This document shows positions 2,656 to 60,109 of a stretch of 64,000 nt of DNA, piece after piece (the first letter of the stretch is position 1; each line of letters begins with the position of its first letter). Source of the DNA: an uncultured Candidatus Saccharibacteria bacterium (GTDB taxonomy: Bacteria; Patescibacteriota; Minisyncoccia; Phycocordibacterales; UBA9973). The notes beneath the pieces were generated by a model that was not told where the DNA came from, ran no database searches, and saw only the letters and a list, made by a program, of their open reading frames with translations. The stretch spans positions 1,374 through 65,373 of the forward strand of contig CAYVDC010000007.1 of the NCBI GenBank assembly GCA_964450735.1, in the 5' to 3' direction. A program made the position numbers and the translations under genes.

Positions 2656-3639
2656 TTAGTAACACTTCCCAGAAGCCGGGAGCAGTGAAGTTTCTTTTGC
2701 AGTTCCGTTATTGTCTGCGCAATAGTACTTGGTCGATTCTGCCATAAGTTTTGAGTAAACGGCAATATTCTTTTCTGTCGCTGAACAATGCAAGCGTGGA
2801 CCGTTGTGCTCAATATTTGAAGCAATAGTTTTTAGCATGGTCGCAGGCGAAATATCTTCGAGAGTATTAACCGGACAAACATCTGTATATGGACGTACTC
2901 CATCTGTTTCAATTTCAACTTGCGCGAGCGCGCTTACAACGCCTGCCTTGATGGCAGCATCTTGTCCGCGAGTTCGAGCAGTAGAAAGTGAAGCAAGAAC
3001 GATCGAAGCAAGTATTCCTATGATTGCAAATACACCGATAGCAATTGCGGCGATCACGATCCAATTATTTGATTTTTCACTTTTCAGACTATCAAGATCG
3101 ATGCTTTTTACATCCACTTCTGTGTAGTCCGCCGGAACAACTAAGGTCTTTGTTAGACGATCATGCCATCCTCGTGGATGAGAACCAACCAAGAAAGAAA
3201 ACGGTTCGAACGGAATAAATCGGCAAAGCGTTCGAAGTAATACTGTTGTAAAACCCGGTTCTGTTCCGTCCATCATGACGACTTTTGTTTTGGTAATCCA
3301 TTTTCCTGGGGTACGCGCCCACATGCTTTCAAAGAAGAGATGATAGCCACCGAGAACTGAAACGGCCACGATCCATCCTGAATTTTCACCAAAAAGAGCA
3401 AAGAGTGCGAGCCCGATCGCGTATGCGCCGATTCTATCGATGAAATAGTTAGCCAATCTTCGTCCCGAGGAAGCTGGCTTTTTCTGCTTAAGCAATTCTT
3501 CTTTTAATTGCTTTGCAGCATCGAGAGTAAGAGGATTCCCGCATGAGCTGCAAAATTTCGATTCCCCTTCTATTTTATTTCCACATTTCTGGCAGAACAT
3601 ATTATTTGTCTTTTTGTGCTCGTACCTTGTATCGAACAT
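2656..3639 (-). CDS. RDD-family membrane protein with N-terminal zinc-ribbon and C-terminal Cys-containing extracytoplasmic domain
   Basis: N-terminal CxxC...CxxC (FCQKCGN...CSSCGN); central block RRLANYFIDRIGAYAIG...ARTPGKWITKTKVV typical of the RDD domain. Confidence 0.65.
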   Translation of the reverse strand: MFDTRYEHKKTNNMFCQKCGNKIEGESKFCSSCGNPLTLDAAKQLKEELLKQKKPASSGRRLANYFIDRIGAYAIGLALFALFGENSGWIVAVSVLGGYHLFFESMWARTPGKWITKTKVVMMDGTEPGFTTVLLRTLCRFIPFEPFSFLVGSHPRGWHDRLTKTLVVPADYTEVDVKSIDLDSLKSEKSNNWIVIAAIAIGVFAIIGILASIVLASLSTARTRGQDAAIKAGVVSALAQVEIETDGVRPYTDVCPVNTLEDISPATMLKTIASNIEHNGPRLHCSATEKNIAVYSKLMAESTKYYCADNNGTAKETSLLPASGKCY

Positions 3640-5573: not shown

Positions 5574-6530
5574 CTATATAACTTCAATTTCCATTAATTC
5601 CCTTAAAAGTCCGGTATTACTTCCGGCGAGAGTTTTTTTATGGTCATCGGTAGCGAATCCTGTTTTGGCGATGGAACATGCAACACCTTGGTCTTTGTTA
5701 CTCTTATCCCACAGTACCATCATCTCATCAATCGAGAAAAGTTTTGTTTCAACTCCACGTGATACTACTGGCCAGTGATGCCCAGATGCTTCCAAAACTT
5801 TTTCAACTTGCTCTCTGGAAAGTACTGCGGTTTTAATCATGGCTTGTAGCGCGTGATTGTGGTTGTAACTTAGCTTTCCTAAAAACAAGATCGAAATCAA
5901 CGTACCAGCAGAAAATTTCCTTTGTGTAACAGCCAATTCAACTGCTTTTGTGTGGAAGTTGCTTCTCGAAATTATTTTAAGCATTTCATCCGTAGAAATT
6001 TTTTCCCACTCTACTAACTCTGAAATTGCTTTTTTGAAAAAATCACACACCTCACGGTGTCTGAATTTCTGTTCGCCCAAAGCTTTTATTTCATAGTCAT
6101 CGGTAATTTTTTCAGCAATTCTAAACAATTCATCCGCAATGCGCACTTCTGACATTTCTTGTACAGCCAGCATTCCTTTTCTTAGTGCGATGGCAACTGC
6201 TTCAGTAACACAGAATGGTAAATGTTCGTCATTGAGTAGTAAGTAAAGCATTTCATTTTCTGTAAGGTTGCCGGTGTTAATGATAGCAACAGCAACTGGC
6301 CATTTTTGTTTTGCTTTTGAGTAAATCTCCAAAAGCTGTTTTCCTGAATACTTAGAATAGCTGAGCTGCCAATTTGTTTGTGTTGCAGCCATCATTGGAA
6401 TTTCAAAAAAGTCGGTATCGTCAAATTGGTTAGACAAGGCAAATTCTATCAATTCTTCATTAGTAAATTTGCTTTGGTCTTTTAATTGCAGTAGTTCAAA
6501 AATTTTTTTTGGGTTTAATGCTTGTTCCAT
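5574..6530 (-). CDS. hypothetical protein (318 aa, no recognisable domain)
   Basis: Long uninterrupted ORF with good coding texture; no motif recognised. Confidence 0.5.
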   Translation of the reverse strand: MEQALNPKKIFELLQLKDQSKFTNEELIEFALSNQFDDTDFFEIPMMAATQTNWQLSYSKYSGKQLLEIYSKAKQKWPVAVAIINTGNLTENEMLYLLLNDEHLPFCVTEAVAIALRKGMLAVQEMSEVRIADELFRIAEKITDDYEIKALGEQKFRHREVCDFFKKAISELVEWEKISTDEMLKIISRSNFHTKAVELAVTQRKFSAGTLISILFLGKLSYNHNHALQAMIKTAVLSREQVEKVLEASGHHWPVVSRGVETKLFSIDEMMVLWDKSNKDQGVACSIAKTGFATDDHKKTLAGSNTGLLRELMEIEVI

Positions 6531-12362: not shown

Positions 12363-12464
12363 ACGTGGTTTTGTTTTTATTTAGGTGAACCAAAGCGAAA
12401 CCCGCGATTTTCTCGCGACCTTTGCTTTGGTTACACCCTTATTTCTCAAGGTATATATTGAGTA

Positions 12465-12494
12465 TATTATAGCACATTACTTGACATATTGTCA
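12465..12494 (-). promoter_or_regulatory. candidate sigma70-type promoter (TTGACA-N18-TATAAT on the minus strand) for the 11124..12362 gene, with a hairpin in the 5' leader
   Basis: Revcomp of tgtcaa (12489-12494) gives TTGACA and revcomp of attata (12465-12470) gives TATAAT. Downstream leader has hairpin AACCAAAGC...GCTTTGGTT. Confidence 0.35.
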
Positions 12495-12506
12495 ATATAT
12501 TGTAAA

Positions 12507-12534
12507 AGCCCTATTTCCAGGGCTTTTTTCTATA
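12507..12534. terminator. terminator hairpin downstream of smc-like gene
   Basis: AAAAGCCCT-atttcc-AGGGCTTTTTT. Confidence 0.5.
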
Positions 12535-12544
12535 CTGCACAAGG

Positions 12545-14827
12545 TTATTTAGCTATTTTTACTGCCTCATCAAACTTGATTGAAAGGAGCTTGGATCCCC
12601 CGTCGGCACCAATGGTCACACCATAGAGGACGCGTGCTCGGGACATTGTTTCGCGATTGTGCGTGACGACGATAAGCTGAGAATACTTTGAGAGGCTTTC
12701 GATCATGTCGCCATAGCGTCGTGAGTTTGCCTCATCAAGAGCTGCGTCAGTTTCATCGAGCACCAAGAATGGCGGCGGATTGACCTGTGACATAGCAAAG
12801 AGAAGCGCGATAGAAGTAAGCGATCGTTCTCCTCCTGAGAGCATGTGGAGGTCTTTGACTTTTTTGTGCGGGAGCGAAACGTTGATCTCAATGCCGCGTT
12901 CGAATTCAAAGTCAGCGTCATTTGCAACAGGGATCTCATCCGCTTCTTCGTCTTCGCCTTTTGATGGACGCTTGTGCTCAACGACGATTGAAAGGAATGC
13001 ATGTCCGCCGCCGAACATGAGTGAGAAGAAGTTAGTGAATTCTTTGTTGATCTTTTCCACACCGGTTTTGAATTCAGTGTCGATCTTTTGTTTGAGATCG
13101 CTAATGAGTGCGCGGAGTTCGGTTACCGCCTGATCGATATCTTGAAGTTCACGAGCCAAGAACTCGTCTCGAGAAACTGTTTCTTCGAATTCTTTGACGA
13201 CTTCGGTTCCACCTTGAGCGCCAGCGTCTTCGAGCTTGTATTTGATTCGGTCAATTTTCTTTTTGAGCTCTTCCTGCTGATGCTTGTCGGCGATTTCTTC
13301 GCTTGGCTGGAATCGCACAGCTTCAAGGCCCACGAGGATGCTTGCCTGCTTGAGTTCGTCCTCAAACTCAGCTTCGATGCGCGCGAGGTTTTCCCGTTCA
13401 AGAGCAATGAGACGTAATTCGGATTCGAGTTCCTGCTTCTTTGCTTTGAGTTCGTAGTATGCTCGTTCCTGATCACGAATGACGCTTTCATCTGATTTCT
13501 TTTCTGATTGGAGTTTGGCGATCTCAGCCTGCACTGCCATTTTGGCTGTATCAAGTTCAGCGATCTCATTTTCAACAGACTGAATGCCGTCGCGAAGTGT
13601 CTTGATCTGCGCCTCTACATGAGAGCGGTCTACAATGGGACTCTGATTTTTGTCCGTCTTTCGGTAATAAATAAACTGTTCGAATGTCTCGCGCACGCGA
13701 GCAACAGTCTCACGGATCTCACCGATATCCTGAAGTGAAAGAATTGTTGCCAAATCTCGGTCAAGTTCGCTAAACAATCCTTCAACTTCCTGAAGAGAAA
13801 CAGCAATGTCTTCTGGAGATCGTTCCTTTTCTGGAGCGCGGAGCTGCTCCTCGAGGAGTGCGATTGAGCCTTCTACGCGTCCGAGTTTGCGAGTAAGTTC
13901 AGCTTGGGATGTGAGGTGCTTGCTGTATTCAGTCTGAAGTCGCGCAGCCTCTGCGCTTGTTCCAGTATCAACGGTTGCTGTCTGGTTCTGAGATGATTCA
14001 TGGGTGCGAATATTCGCCTCTGCCTCGGAAATTTTCTCTCGGAGCGCATTTGTTTTTTCTTCTTGGGCAGCTTTTTCTTTTGCAATAAATGCTGATTGTT
14101 TGCTGAAATATTCTTTGTACAATCCCCCAACTTCGGTGCGGAGTTCCTGCGCCTTTTCGATTTTCTCTACCTGCTTTTTCAAGAATCCAATGTGCGGAGC
14201 GATCTCTCGGCGGAGCGACTGCACTTCTTTCATGTTCGCAAGCGTCTTGTCTAGTTTGCGCTCGCTTTCGCGGAGGCGGTACTGGTATACACGAAGACCA
14301 AGCGCATCCTCGATCATGCCGCGGCGGTCTTTTGGATTTGCTGAGAGCAATCGGTCTGCTTCACCTTGGGAAATAATATGGTGGCCAGATGAGCCGATAT
14401 TTACAGAAGCAACGAGCTCAAGAATATCTTTGAGGCGAACTTCAGTGCCGTTTAGTTTGTAGGTATTTGATCCATCGCTGTATACCTCGCGAGAAATAGA
14501 GATCTCATCGAAGTCGAGATTGATTGCTTTGTCCCCCGTCTTTGGAAGTGAGAATACTTTGCGTGAGTTGTCGAAAACGATCGTGACTGATGCGCGAGAA
14601 AGAGACGCCAATGCTTTGGAGCCTTTGAAGATCATGTCTGCTCCGCCTTTGCCGCGGAGAGATTTGATGGATTGTTCTCCGAGCACGAAACGAATTGATT
14701 CAACGACGTTTGATTTTCCTGATCCATTTGGGCCGACGATAGCCGTTACCGGCGTATCGAAATCAAGCATCGTTTTTTTGGCGAAGGATTTGAATCCGGA
14801 GAGTTCGAGGCGTTTCAACATCAGCAT
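12545..14827 (-). CDS. smc: SMC-like chromosome segregation ATPase (short, 760 aa)
   Basis: N-terminal Walker A (GPNGSGKSN), long coiled-coil middle, C-terminal signature LSGGERSLTSIALLFA plus Walker B LVLDETDAALD. At 760 aa it is shorter than canonical SMC, so RecN/SbcC-like cannot be fully excluded. Confidence 0.7.
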   Translation of the reverse strand: MLMLKRLELSGFKSFAKKTMLDFDTPVTAIVGPNGSGKSNVVESIRFVLGEQSIKSLRGKGGADMIFKGSKALASLSRASVTIVFDNSRKVFSLPKTGDKAINLDFDEISISREVYSDGSNTYKLNGTEVRLKDILELVASVNIGSSGHHIISQGEADRLLSANPKDRRGMIEDALGLRVYQYRLRESERKLDKTLANMKEVQSLRREIAPHIGFLKKQVEKIEKAQELRTEVGGLYKEYFSKQSAFIAKEKAAQEEKTNALREKISEAEANIRTHESSQNQTATVDTGTSAEAARLQTEYSKHLTSQAELTRKLGRVEGSIALLEEQLRAPEKERSPEDIAVSLQEVEGLFSELDRDLATILSLQDIGEIRETVARVRETFEQFIYYRKTDKNQSPIVDRSHVEAQIKTLRDGIQSVENEIAELDTAKMAVQAEIAKLQSEKKSDESVIRDQERAYYELKAKKQELESELRLIALERENLARIEAEFEDELKQASILVGLEAVRFQPSEEIADKHQQEELKKKIDRIKYKLEDAGAQGGTEVVKEFEETVSRDEFLARELQDIDQAVTELRALISDLKQKIDTEFKTGVEKINKEFTNFFSLMFGGGHAFLSIVVEHKRPSKGEDEEADEIPVANDADFEFERGIEINVSLPHKKVKDLHMLSGGERSLTSIALLFAMSQVNPPPFLVLDETDAALDEANSRRYGDMIESLSKYSQLIVVTHNRETMSRARVLYGVTIGADGGSKLLSIKFDEAVKIAK

Positions 14828-14880
14828 ATGATGGGTTTATTTTAGCATTTTATTGAGTATTAAAACAACTGGATTATTGT

Positions 14881-15112
14881 TCCGGGAGAGCGCTTACGGT
14901 GCACTTTTGATCGGACACCTTTGTGCTCCGCTCAAAAGTGCACCGACGCGCTATGAACATCTTTCATCCATCTGTATTCCAATCACCACTCTTTACCGTA
15001 AAGGTGGTGATTGGAAGTGAGTATGGTGATGAGATGCACAGGGCGCGAAGCAGTAGTTCTCCTGACGCAGCGTAAGCAAGTCAGGAAACTACTGCTGGTG
15101 CGCTCTCCGGGG
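14881..15112. repeat. structured intergenic element: three strong hairpins bounded by an imperfect terminal inverted repeat (candidate ncRNA or MITE/REP-like element)
   Basis: Terminal inverted repeat is CCGGGAGAGCGC (14882-14893) against GCGCTCTCCGG (15100-15110). Internal hairpins are GGTGCACTTTTGA...TCAAAAGTGCACC (13 bp), CCAATCACCAC(T)CTTTAC-cg-GTAAAGGTGGTGATTGG (~17 bp) and CAGTAGTT-CCTGAC...GTCAGG-AACTACTG. Confidence 0.5.
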
Positions 15113-15115
15113 ACT

Positions 15116-15811
15116 TTAGTCCAACCAGTTTTTGACTACCAATGCAGCCTCAGCTGCTTTGGTTTCTGCTTCTTGTTTTGACTTGCCTTTTCCAGACGCC
15201 ACTAGTTCATCGCCAAAATAAATACCAATAGTGAAATGTTTGTCGTGGTCAGGACCGCTCTCTGCCGTAACTTTGTACGCAGGTGTAACATGAACGAATT
15301 CCTGGGCTTTTTCCTGGATCAAGCTTTTCGGATCGCGCCATAATTTCTTTTTGACGATCTCGTCGAGTTTTGGGAACAAAGCGTTTTTTATGAATGTCTC
15401 GCAAGCATCATATCCCTGGTCAAGAAAAAGCGCGCCAGTAAATGACTCGAACGTGTTTGCAAGAATGTGCATGCGCGCCTTGCCGACGTCGCGGCTCTCG
15501 CCTTTTGAAAGGAGCAAGTACTCATTCATACCAAGGTTAGCTGCAGTCTCAGAAAGAACAACTGCATTTACGAGCGCAGAACGGTATGCAGTAAGCTCGC
15601 CTTCTGGAGCTGACTTATATGTTTTATAGAGATGATCTGTGACCACCAATTCCAAAACTGCATCGCCCAAAAATTCCAAACGCTCATTGTGAGAGAAATT
15701 GCTGCCTGGATTTTCGTTGATGAACGAACGGTGAATAAATGCCTGACGAAGAAGTTCCTTGTTTTTGAACGATACTGCTACTTTTTTTTCAAAGTCTGTG
15801 AAATCAATCAT
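15116..15811 (-). CDS. rnc: ribonuclease III
   Basis: RNase III signature ERLEFLGDAVLELVVTDHLY; C-terminal dsRBD (GKGKSKQEAETKAAEAAL). Confidence 0.9.
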   Translation of the reverse strand: MIDFTDFEKKVAVSFKNKELLRQAFIHRSFINENPGSNFSHNERLEFLGDAVLELVVTDHLYKTYKSAPEGELTAYRSALVNAVVLSETAANLGMNEYLLLSKGESRDVGKARMHILANTFESFTGALFLDQGYDACETFIKNALFPKLDEIVKKKLWRDPKSLIQEKAQEFVHVTPAYKVTAESGPDHDKHFTIGIYFGDELVASGKGKSKQEAETKAAEAALVVKNWLD

Positions 15812-15897
15812 GAATTGAAAGGATAAAGAAGTAAGACTATATGAGATACTCTTGCTTCTTCATCCCTGATTAGGGATTACTAAATAGTATTGAACGC

Positions 15898-16803
15898 TTA
15901 GCGCTTTCCAGTGATGATTGGAATAGCCTTGGCGATCAATGCCGTCACACTATCATACATGCGGAGGCTTGTCACCTCTTTCAAAGTGAACCATTTGCAG
16001 TCGTCCAAACCGCCTGAAGTTGATTCAAGTTTGACTGGAGTGTATGCAGATTCGCCCAAATAAAAGACCACTTGCTTTCGGATTTTGCCTTTTTGCGGAT
16101 GTGAGGCAACGTACTCATCATCACCAAGCTTTTCGATGATGCGCATATCGAGACTCATTTCTTTTTTGATTTCTCGGATAGCGGCCTGCTCTGAAGTCTC
16201 GCCTTCTTGAGCGCCTCCTTTTGAAAGTGTCCAATATCCGAAGACATCGTGCACGAGCGCAAGATAAATTTCACCATTGTCGATTGCGTATACGACAGCT
16301 CCAGCCTTCACTTCAATTGGAAGTTTTGAAATATCTACCGGCTCATCTTTCATCTGTCGCTTTGATTTCTGATCTTTGCCTGGCTCACCGAGTTCTTTGT
16401 AGACAGCTCCCAATACTCCGTTGATGAATCGTGACGAAGAGTCTGAACCGAATGTCTTTGCAAGTTCAATCGCTTCGTTGATAGAAACTTTTGGAGGAAC
16501 TTCATTGTGGTCGCCAAAAAGAAGCTCAGCAAGTCCCATGCGGAGAATGTTTCGGTCTACAGCATTGATCTTGTCGATCGGCCACTCTGGCGCAGCTTTG
16601 GCGATAATCTCATCAACAAGGTCCTTTTTGCGAACAACGTTCATAGCAAGCGTTTGCATGAACGGCAAGTCTTCGAGGCCTGGTGCGAACTCCTCAGAGT
16701 TGCGCTTCAAAATCTCCTCAATATCTGAGTCTGGCTTACCTTTAAAATCCCACTCGAAGAGGGTTTGGAGAATAACTGAACGTGATAGATGACGATTTGC
16801 CAT
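15898..16803 (-). CDS. nusB: NusB-like antitermination domain fused to a C-terminal NUDIX-like hydrolase domain
   Basis: The N-terminal ~140 aa are NusB-like (ANRHLSRSVILQTLFEWDF...RFINGVLGAVYKEL). The C-terminal ~140 aa carry a degenerate Nudix box (GGAQEGETSEQAAIREIKKEMSL) in a single continuous ORF. Confidence 0.7.
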   Translation of the reverse strand: MANRHLSRSVILQTLFEWDFKGKPDSDIEEILKRNSEEFAPGLEDLPFMQTLAMNVVRKKDLVDEIIAKAAPEWPIDKINAVDRNILRMGLAELLFGDHNEVPPKVSINEAIELAKTFGSDSSSRFINGVLGAVYKELGEPGKDQKSKRQMKDEPVDISKLPIEVKAGAVVYAIDNGEIYLALVHDVFGYWTLSKGGAQEGETSEQAAIREIKKEMSLDMRIIEKLGDDEYVASHPQKGKIRKQVVFYLGESAYTPVKLESTSGGLDDCKWFTLKEVTSLRMYDSVTALIAKAIPIITGKR

Positions 16804-25949: not shown

Positions 25950-25965
25950 AGCTATGAATGCCGAA

Positions 25966-26026
25966 GCATATCACTTTCTGAAATTGCCCTGCCCGCTAAG
26001 AGAAACAATTTTAGAAAGTGATATGC
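25966..26026 (+). promoter_or_regulatory. 21-bp near-perfect hairpin between decarboxylase and deoxyhypusine-synthase-like genes (candidate attenuator/processing/binding site)
   Basis: GCATATCACTTTCTGAAATTG against CAATTTTAGAAAGTGATATGC (20/21 complementary) with a 19-nt loop; no downstream U-run. Confidence 0.4.
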
Positions 26027-26082
26027 GTAGGCATCGAAAATAACTGTATCTCGAATTATTTATTAGATAATATTTAGATGTT

Positions 26083-60049: not shown

Positions 60050-60079
60050 TTGACAAAAAGTCAAAAAATCGTTATAACG
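60050..60079. repeat. 30-nt perfect palindrome (nested with TTGACAAAAAGTCAA) between fibre paralog 3 stop and collagen-like gene start
   Basis: GTCAAAAAATCGTTA|TAACGATTTTTTGAC; AT-rich stem, so it could be a terminator or a protein-binding operator. Confidence 0.45.
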
Positions 60080-60109
60080 ATTTTTTGACTTTTTGATGCA
60101 GTTATTAGG

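Follow-up and report, generated by a model that had tools for sequence, protein, structure and literature searches.

A MITE-like palindromic element between rnc and smc in a Patescibacterium, probably one copy of a previously undescribed dispersed repeat family

Correia elements (CREE/nemis) of Neisseria are small, non-coding repeats with terminal inverted repeats of ∼25 nt, which occupy transcribed intergenic insertion sites and vary in presence between close relatives. Once transcribed they form a long helix that is bound or cleaved by RNase III (PMC2649163). The element described here, which lies between the RNase III gene (rnc) and a short smc gene of a Patescibacterium, resembles Correia elements in these traits of DNA and setting, and a TA target is proposed here too. 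However, there is no sequence similarity between the two; the element measures 240-270 nt as against 100-155 nt for Correia elements with their 26-bp repeat; two subterminal hairpins and a long central hairpin are arranged in a four-way junction; the host is a Patescibacterium; and copy number looks low here, whereas Correia elements occur in hundreds. Membership of the Correia family was rejected on the lack of a homology match, the length of 262 nt and the different phylum, and the likeness is an analogy of architecture only.

Bacterial MITEs more generally (PMC10969869, PMC3184786, PMC2229807) share with the element its size, its terminal repeats, its non-coding nature and its intergenic location, as well as insertion in both orientations and the occurrence of truncated or modular forms; they differ in that only few copies were seen here, with no autonomous IS partner in the loci examined. 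REP and BIME sequences are likewise extragenic palindromes after stop codons, and like them the element could stabilise upstream mRNA, but REPs are single hairpins of 20-40 nt, present in high copy and linked to RAYT. Membership of REP/BIME was rejected, the unit here being 240-270 nt long with terminal repeats and no Y1/RAYT gene having been seen in the loci examined. The long imperfect palindromes of the ERIC or IRU type found in enterobacteria are transcribed, intergenic and patchily distributed among relatives, with compensatory stems, as here; they differ in being single hairpins of ∼127 bp from a different phylum, with no homology to the element. Lastly, 6S RNA has a similar length (∼200 nt) and paired 5' and 3' ends, but it is rod-shaped, with a bubble in its centre, and its gene is a universal housekeeping one, whereas the element is absent from close relatives. 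By architecture the closest analogues are Correia elements and ERIC-type palindromes, and the element is a member of no named family. A full-text literature search found no paper on MITEs in Patescibacteria.

The element was analysed within a window of 64 kb (i.e. the whole stretch of DNA under study) from a Patescibacterium whose relatives are labelled Paceibacterota, Nomurabacteria and similar. An earlier note, made from the sequence of the window, had named the flanking genes as rnc and smc, and Pfam hits on both sides agree with it. Gene order on the minus strand is a nusB-NUDIX fusion (15898-16803), rnc, the element and the short smc, with the element starting at the rnc stop codon and smc downstream of it. 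From rnc to smc, the features are:

15116-15811, minus strand: rnc, encoding RNase III (231 aa; Pfam Ribonucleas_3_3 and dsrm)
15100-15123: terminal inverted repeat, rnc-proximal arm, TGGACTAAAGTCCCCGGAGAGCGC on the minus strand, pairing with 14870-14893
15049-15096: subterminal hairpin A, two-tiered, CAGTAGTT/CCTGAC with GTCAGG/AACTACTG
14946-15048: central long hairpin, with base CGCGC/GCGCG and a CCATA/TATGG block
14897-14945: subterminal hairpin C, CGGTGCACTTTTGATCGGA / TCCGCTCAAAAGTGCACCG, with the conserved CACTTTTGA/TCAAAAGTG motif
14870-14893: terminal inverted repeat, smc-proximal arm, TGGATTATTGTTCCGGGAGAGCGC on the plus strand
14839-14847, minus strand: TGCTAAAAT, an extended -10-like motif whose end lies 11 nt upstream of the smc start codon (ATG)
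12545-14827, minus strand: smc, encoding a short SMC of 760 aa (Pfam SMC_N, residues 3-742)

A typical bacterial SMC is ∼1,200 aa long and the 760-aa protein is much shorter; both the short SMC and the NusB-NUDIX hydrolase fusion are common to the clade. The spacer downstream of smc (12363-12544) is moderately structured on the minus strand (z -3.4), and its length is conserved at 176-189 nt in three relatives (L034, L036 and L057).

The rnc-smc spacer is 288 nt long and consists mostly of one compound palindrome of 262 nt (14866-15127), for which a four-way junction was predicted, with a closing stem of ∼24 bp enclosing three long hairpins. In the outer inverted repeat, CCGGGAGAGCGC (14882-14893) pairs with GCGCTCTCCGG (15100-15110), and the pairing extends to arms of 24 nt (14870-14893 and 15100-15123) with 79% complementarity; the rnc-proximal arm overlaps the rnc stop codon together with the last two sense codons. 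Arms of 19 nt (95%) form the hairpin at 14897-14945, which includes a perfect 13-mer already recorded in the earlier note, and the hairpin at 14977-15016, with perfect 13-nt arms, is the tip of the longer central stem (∼14946-15048), where CCAATCACCAC...GTGGTGATTGG surround a conserved TTACSGTAA centre. All four inverted repeats that the earlier note had described were present in the places it gave, and the fold is extreme on both strands. As RNA, minimum free energies were -133.6 kcal/mol for the minus strand (z -13.6) and -146.4 kcal/mol for the plus strand (z -12.4), i.e. z about -13 on both, with 0/200 shuffles as good in either case; with DNA parameters the value was -82.5 kcal/mol (z -15.2). 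A GC-corrected sliding scan of the whole 64-kb window placed the element as by far the top outlier on both strands (z -6.8 and -6.5).

Coding capacity is lacking, with stops in all six frames in each of the copies examined (4/4) and a longest overlapping ORF of 56 aa; with a size of 262 nt, the element falls within the MITE size range of about 50-500 bp. Neither self-BLAST nor a profile search found a second copy in the 64-kb window. Two other palindromic intergenic stretches were observed there, namely a perfect 42-nt palindrome without loop at 60054-60095 (CAAAAAGTCAAAAAATCGTTA|TAACGATTTTTTGACTTTTTG) and an inverted repeat with 29-nt arms at 25958-26034; both are probably terminators or operators.

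The sequence between the element and smc was compared across the window's own clade, defined by rnc products 79-91% identical in protein. TTTCAnTG(n)TAAAAT is conserved throughout the clade at 10-17 nt upstream of the smc start codon, whether the spacer is filled or empty (the window, L003, L034, L004, L005, L036, L057, L058 and L002). Judged by its sequence, this motif resembles an extended -10 promoter, and smc probably has a promoter of its own. If so, the smc mRNA would be leaderless or have a very short leader, and the element would be flanked by the stop codon of rnc on one side and an independent promoter of smc on the other. A promoter and terminator scan of 14600-15400 found no promoter-like site in the element and no terminator-like site on the minus strand, its two weak plus-strand matches being at chance level. 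As there is no terminator between rnc and the element, nusB-rnc transcripts probably continue into the element, which would form their 3' part.

In most relatives smc begins only 3-25 nt downstream of rnc. Within the clade, the spacer contents varied as follows (identities are those of rnc):

Empty spacer of 53-57 nt with the same flanks: L034 (91% identical), L003 (89%) and L057 (80%)
Homologous element in the spacer: L004 and its strain variant L055 (87%), and L005 (82%)
Unrelated insert, L036 3697-3959, identical in L037-L039: 263 nt, two long near-perfect hairpins
Unrelated insert, L035 3697-3733: contig ends within the insert
Unrelated insert, L002 4694-5341: 648 nt
Unrelated insert, L051 3697-3863: 167 nt with a hairpin, plus an AAA_33/zeta-toxin-like kinase gene
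Unrelated insert, L058 3697-3815: 119 nt

On the rnc tree, lineages with the element alternate with lineages that have an empty site. The rnc C-terminus, KNWLD*, is identical in filled and empty sites, and thus the element does not supply coding sequence. The copy in L005 is without hairpin C. The stop codon is TAA in empty sites and TAG in L004 and L005, whose element begins with G, although this is a post-hoc reading. Some insert, of at least four unrelated kinds, was present in 8 of the 11 clade lineages, and neighbouring spacers are of near-constant length. A search for further copies around rnc, using nhmmer with a five-sequence profile against ∼370 kb of related loci, found none. The three rnc-site copies could all stem from one ancient insertion that was later lost precisely in some lineages, and hence represent few independent insertions.

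The rnc-smc spacer, which is unusually variable in this clade, acts like an insertion hot spot. A further hairpin of ∼130 nt was observed in L034, where the rnc-smc spacer is empty, between nusB and rnc (2781-3000), a spacer of 43-86 nt elsewhere; it consists of GGTGCAGGTCTTG...CAAGACCTGCACC inside TTTTGAAAAT...ATTTTCAAAA.

Copies in other contexts were sought by scanning metagenome contigs with a strict, context-free DNA pattern derived from the inner element. Ten matches were obtained, nine of them chance matches of high GC and one a full homologue (L047). No rnc, smc or nusB lies near this copy; its neighbour is a polA-PEMT-holB cluster, with the stop codon of the holB-like gene immediately before the element and a canonical intrinsic terminator after it. 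The same copy is present in L060, whose holB is 93% identical to that of L047. In L062/L063 (holB 83% identical), a variant with the same terminal repeat and a different interior, cut by the contig end, follows holB, and a half copy lies 4.6 kb upstream of it in a third context (nhmmer E 3e-16). This half copy (L062 3922-4064) comprises the terminal repeat, a subterminal hairpin and half of the central stem, and the 14.5-kb contig of L062 therefore holds two copies. Across the relatives, the element thus occupies at least three genomic contexts (the rnc-smc spacer, the holB 3' region and L062 3922-4064), and truncated and module-lacking variants exist (L005, L062a). Further copies, on which the earlier note had made a MITE depend, were missing from the rest of the 64-kb window but present in related contigs, and its suggestion of a MITE/REP-like element is supported by the presence/absence polymorphism, by the copies with shared repeats in two other contexts and by the contig that holds two copies.

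The L047 copy also bears on the fallback offered in the earlier note, i.e. that the hairpins are only terminators. For ordinary terminators of rnc transcription, the position directly after the stop codon would be suitable, as would a T-rich tract (GTTGTTTT) after the extended closing stem on the minus strand. However, on the transcribed minus (sense) strand 0/3 internal hairpins are followed by a T-run, the two plus-strand scan matches are weak and at chance level, the relatives with empty sites have no terminator there, and L047 has a distinct canonical terminator after the element. We find the terminator explanation scarcely credible.

A fuzzy search recovered a 24-mer terminal-repeat consensus, TGGAWTAnAGTyCyCGGAGAgCGC, at every end, including those of the copies in L004, L055, L005, L047, L060 and L062, and CACTTTTGA/TCAAAAGTG occurs four times per full copy. 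At 6/9 ends a TA is present 1-3 nt beyond the TGGAWT block, which is a post-hoc reading; the right flank of the window's copy is TG, and its junctions and exact boundaries are ambiguous. No clear target-site duplication was found at the copy junctions examined. The loci examined contained no extra terminal repeat and no element-linked transposase that would indicate an autonomous partner, and in none of them did a Y1 transposase, RAYT or recombinase gene lie beside the element. Three pattern scans of viral contigs gave 0, 22 and 1 matches, none confirmed by profile, and blastn against phage and plasmid collections found no relative.

Four Logan (k-mer assembled) contig sets extend to a copy of the family, and all four break off within that copy (L001, L056, L061 and L062/63), which fits a repeated or polymorphic sequence but does not prove it. 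Logan contigs were also seen to stop consistently 31-109 nt into structured inserts (L001, L035, L040, L056, L061 and L062/L063), and it is probable that Patescibacteria assemblies are repeatedly fragmented by such inserts.

Conservation of the structure was assessed by covariation in a five-sequence alignment (A4) that represents four independent lineages. The consensus is the same four-way junction, with 86% of cells paired and compensatory (both-sided) change in 23/82 pairs. Hairpin A corresponds to consensus helix 2, with compensatory change in 7/13 pairs; the central hairpin corresponds to helices 3-7, its tip helix showing compensatory changes; and hairpin C is helix 8, which is 100% paired with compensatory change in 3 pairs. 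In control analyses, 0/500 shuffles reached any of the five measures and slid 3' partners gave 2-9 pairs. Since the covariation exceeds both the shuffled and the slid controls, pairing is under constraint.

This constraint is not specific to one strand. In every copy the two strands are about equal in folding, that antisense to rnc being slightly better in three, and a tally of pair types gave 21 G-U cells on the modelled strand vs 15 A-C cells, which are G-U on the other. Pairwise identity between copies is 61-68% whichever orientation is taken, and between a copy and its own reverse complement it is 64-73%; alignment does not settle their orientation, as mean column identity is 64% vs 66% for the two orientations. 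By its closing-stem arm variants, the holB-site copy is inverted relative to its upstream gene when compared with the rnc-site copies. Such an orientation-independent element with mirrored halves looks like a transposon-derived foldback repeat, unlike a dedicated RNA gene.

The same observations weigh on the proposal that the element is an independent small-RNA gene, 6S-like or of another housekeeping type, transcribed from either strand under a promoter of its own. The pairing of the 5' and 3' ends in a closing stem, a covarying conserved structure and the slightly better fold of the strand antisense to rnc in three copies would all be expected of one. However, the element has no promoter- or terminator-like site of its own, it is absent from the closest relatives, its orientation to neighbouring genes is not constant, and truncated and module-lacking copies occur (L005, L062a). 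The earlier note had raised a small structured RNA of 6S-like kind, and here neither the Rfam comparison nor the fold was in agreement: no Rfam family matches the element at E≤1, 6S included, and the fold is a four-way junction and not the 6S rod. At gathering thresholds, Rfam returned one tRNA only across the whole window (ARAGORN found two tRNA genes), and a permissive search of 14000-16000 returned two chance matches only, with E above 0.6. We therefore regard a small-RNA gene as very unlikely.

A site acting at the level of DNA, in single-stranded or cruciform form, offers another account of the symmetry, whether as the ends of a hairpin-recognising element of the IS200/IS605 or REP/RAYT type or as a recombination or replication site near smc. 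The fold is equally extreme with DNA parameters (z -15.2), the element is symmetric with no strand preference, and CACTTTTGA/TCAAAAGTG and TTACSGTAA are short palindromic blocks that resemble protein-binding sites. IS200/IS605 and REP types, however, are asymmetric and have no long terminal repeats, whereas the element has terminal repeats of 24 nt; the loci examined contain no adjacent Y1 transposase, RAYT or recombinase gene; and the dispersed copies after unrelated genes disfavour a chromosome-organising site. Such a DNA-level role is, in our estimation, unlikely.

The location beside rnc also invites a regulatory explanation, in which the element is a cis-acting RNA of the rnc 3' region, cleaved by RNase III for feedback on rnc and/or for setting the level of read-through into smc, with the other copies being secondary. 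RNase III substrates have double-stranded helices of ∼20 bp or more, and the lengths predicted here (13-19 bp, mismatches being few or absent, and ∼24 bp in the closing stem) would suit the enzyme; its cleavage or binding of Neisseria Correia MITE transcripts is documented (PMC2649163). Maintenance of the structure by compensatory change is also in keeping with this explanation, as are the other hairpin-rich inserts in the same spacer (L036, L035, L051 and L058), the L034 hairpin upstream of rnc and the near-constant length of neighbouring spacers. Against it, three of the closest relatives have an empty spacer of 53-57 nt; the same element occurs after holB, where its orientation to transcription is the opposite, and in a third context; the G-U pairs show no strand bias; strongly structured stretches occur in other spacers too; and the promoter-like motif separates the element from smc. 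The earlier note's idea of an RNase III-processed RNA controlling smc is weakened in particular, because copies are not tied to rnc and because the conserved promoter-like TGnTAAAAT stands between the element and smc. On balance we consider a cis-regulatory role rather unlikely.

A related proposal is that the rnc spacer is a selected landing pad, where unrelated hairpin-rich elements (the present family, the L036 and L035 types and others) are captured time and again, the benefit being that long double-stranded RNA in the rnc transcript provides RNase III feedback and the uncoupling of smc; we judge this improbable. If it were true, domestication would have turned a mobile four-way-junction RNA/DNA element into an autoregulatory module, in organisms whose regulatory repertoires are minimal. 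Enrichment of structured inserts beside rnc was not established, since a sliding-fold analysis of 21 loci placed similarly strong hairpins in other spacers and inside smc. The most structured stretch of the 21 loci (L015 7050-7300; z -7.9) consists of three consecutive near-perfect hairpins of unrelated sequence, and a perfect hairpin of ∼20 bp (GCGGACGCCTTGCTTCCGC...GCGGAAGCAAGGCGTCCGC) was observed at L013 ∼6065-6115, inside the expected smc coding region.

The observed structure, its compensatory conservation, the empty sites in close relatives and the copies in other contexts lead us to favour, as probable, the reading that the element belongs to a hitherto undescribed, low-copy repeat family, MITE-like and of "foldback" type, whose small, palindromic and non-coding copies are dispersed in a Patescibacteria (Paceibacteria/Nomurabacteria-like) clade. 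Its position beside rnc is most likely incidental. Against this reading stand the low copy number, with one copy in the 64-kb window, no further one in the ∼370 kb around rnc in relatives and one new metagenome match with a strict pattern, and the lack of a clear target-site duplication or an autonomous partner in the loci examined; compensatory evolution of stems is also expected of a functional RNA.

In anatomy, the family has a terminal repeat of ∼24 nt, subterminal hairpins (CACTTTTGA...TCAAAAGTG) that may be present at either end, and a long central hairpin built on TTACSGTAA, so arranged that the unit nearly equals its own reverse complement. In the window, insertion would have occurred at or immediately after the rnc stop codon and upstream of the smc promoter-like motif. 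Movement, now or once, may have relied on a transposase encoded elsewhere and acting in trans on the terminal repeats, with TA as a suggested target, and CACTTTTGA/TCAAAAGTG and TTACSGTAA are candidate protein-binding sites. The element would then form part of the 3' untranslated or intercistronic portion of the nusB-rnc transcript, where its helices, of 13 to ∼24 bp, may act as a barrier to 3' exonucleases and/or present a candidate RNase III cleavage site. By analogy with the Correia elements of Neisseria, a cut by RNase III would uncouple rnc from the downstream RNA.

As an object, the element is tidy but of an ordinary kind. The genomes of Patescibacteria (CPR) are small and streamlined, and hardly any mobile DNA or non-coding repeats have been described in them; a repeat family with clear terminal repeats would be useful as a marker of strain-level variation, as a likely cause of breaks in MAG assemblies and as a handle on the transposase that moves it. 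Furthermore, if RNase III cuts the transcribed element, this would be a simple case in nature of a mobile element that rewires expression of the nuclease's own operon.
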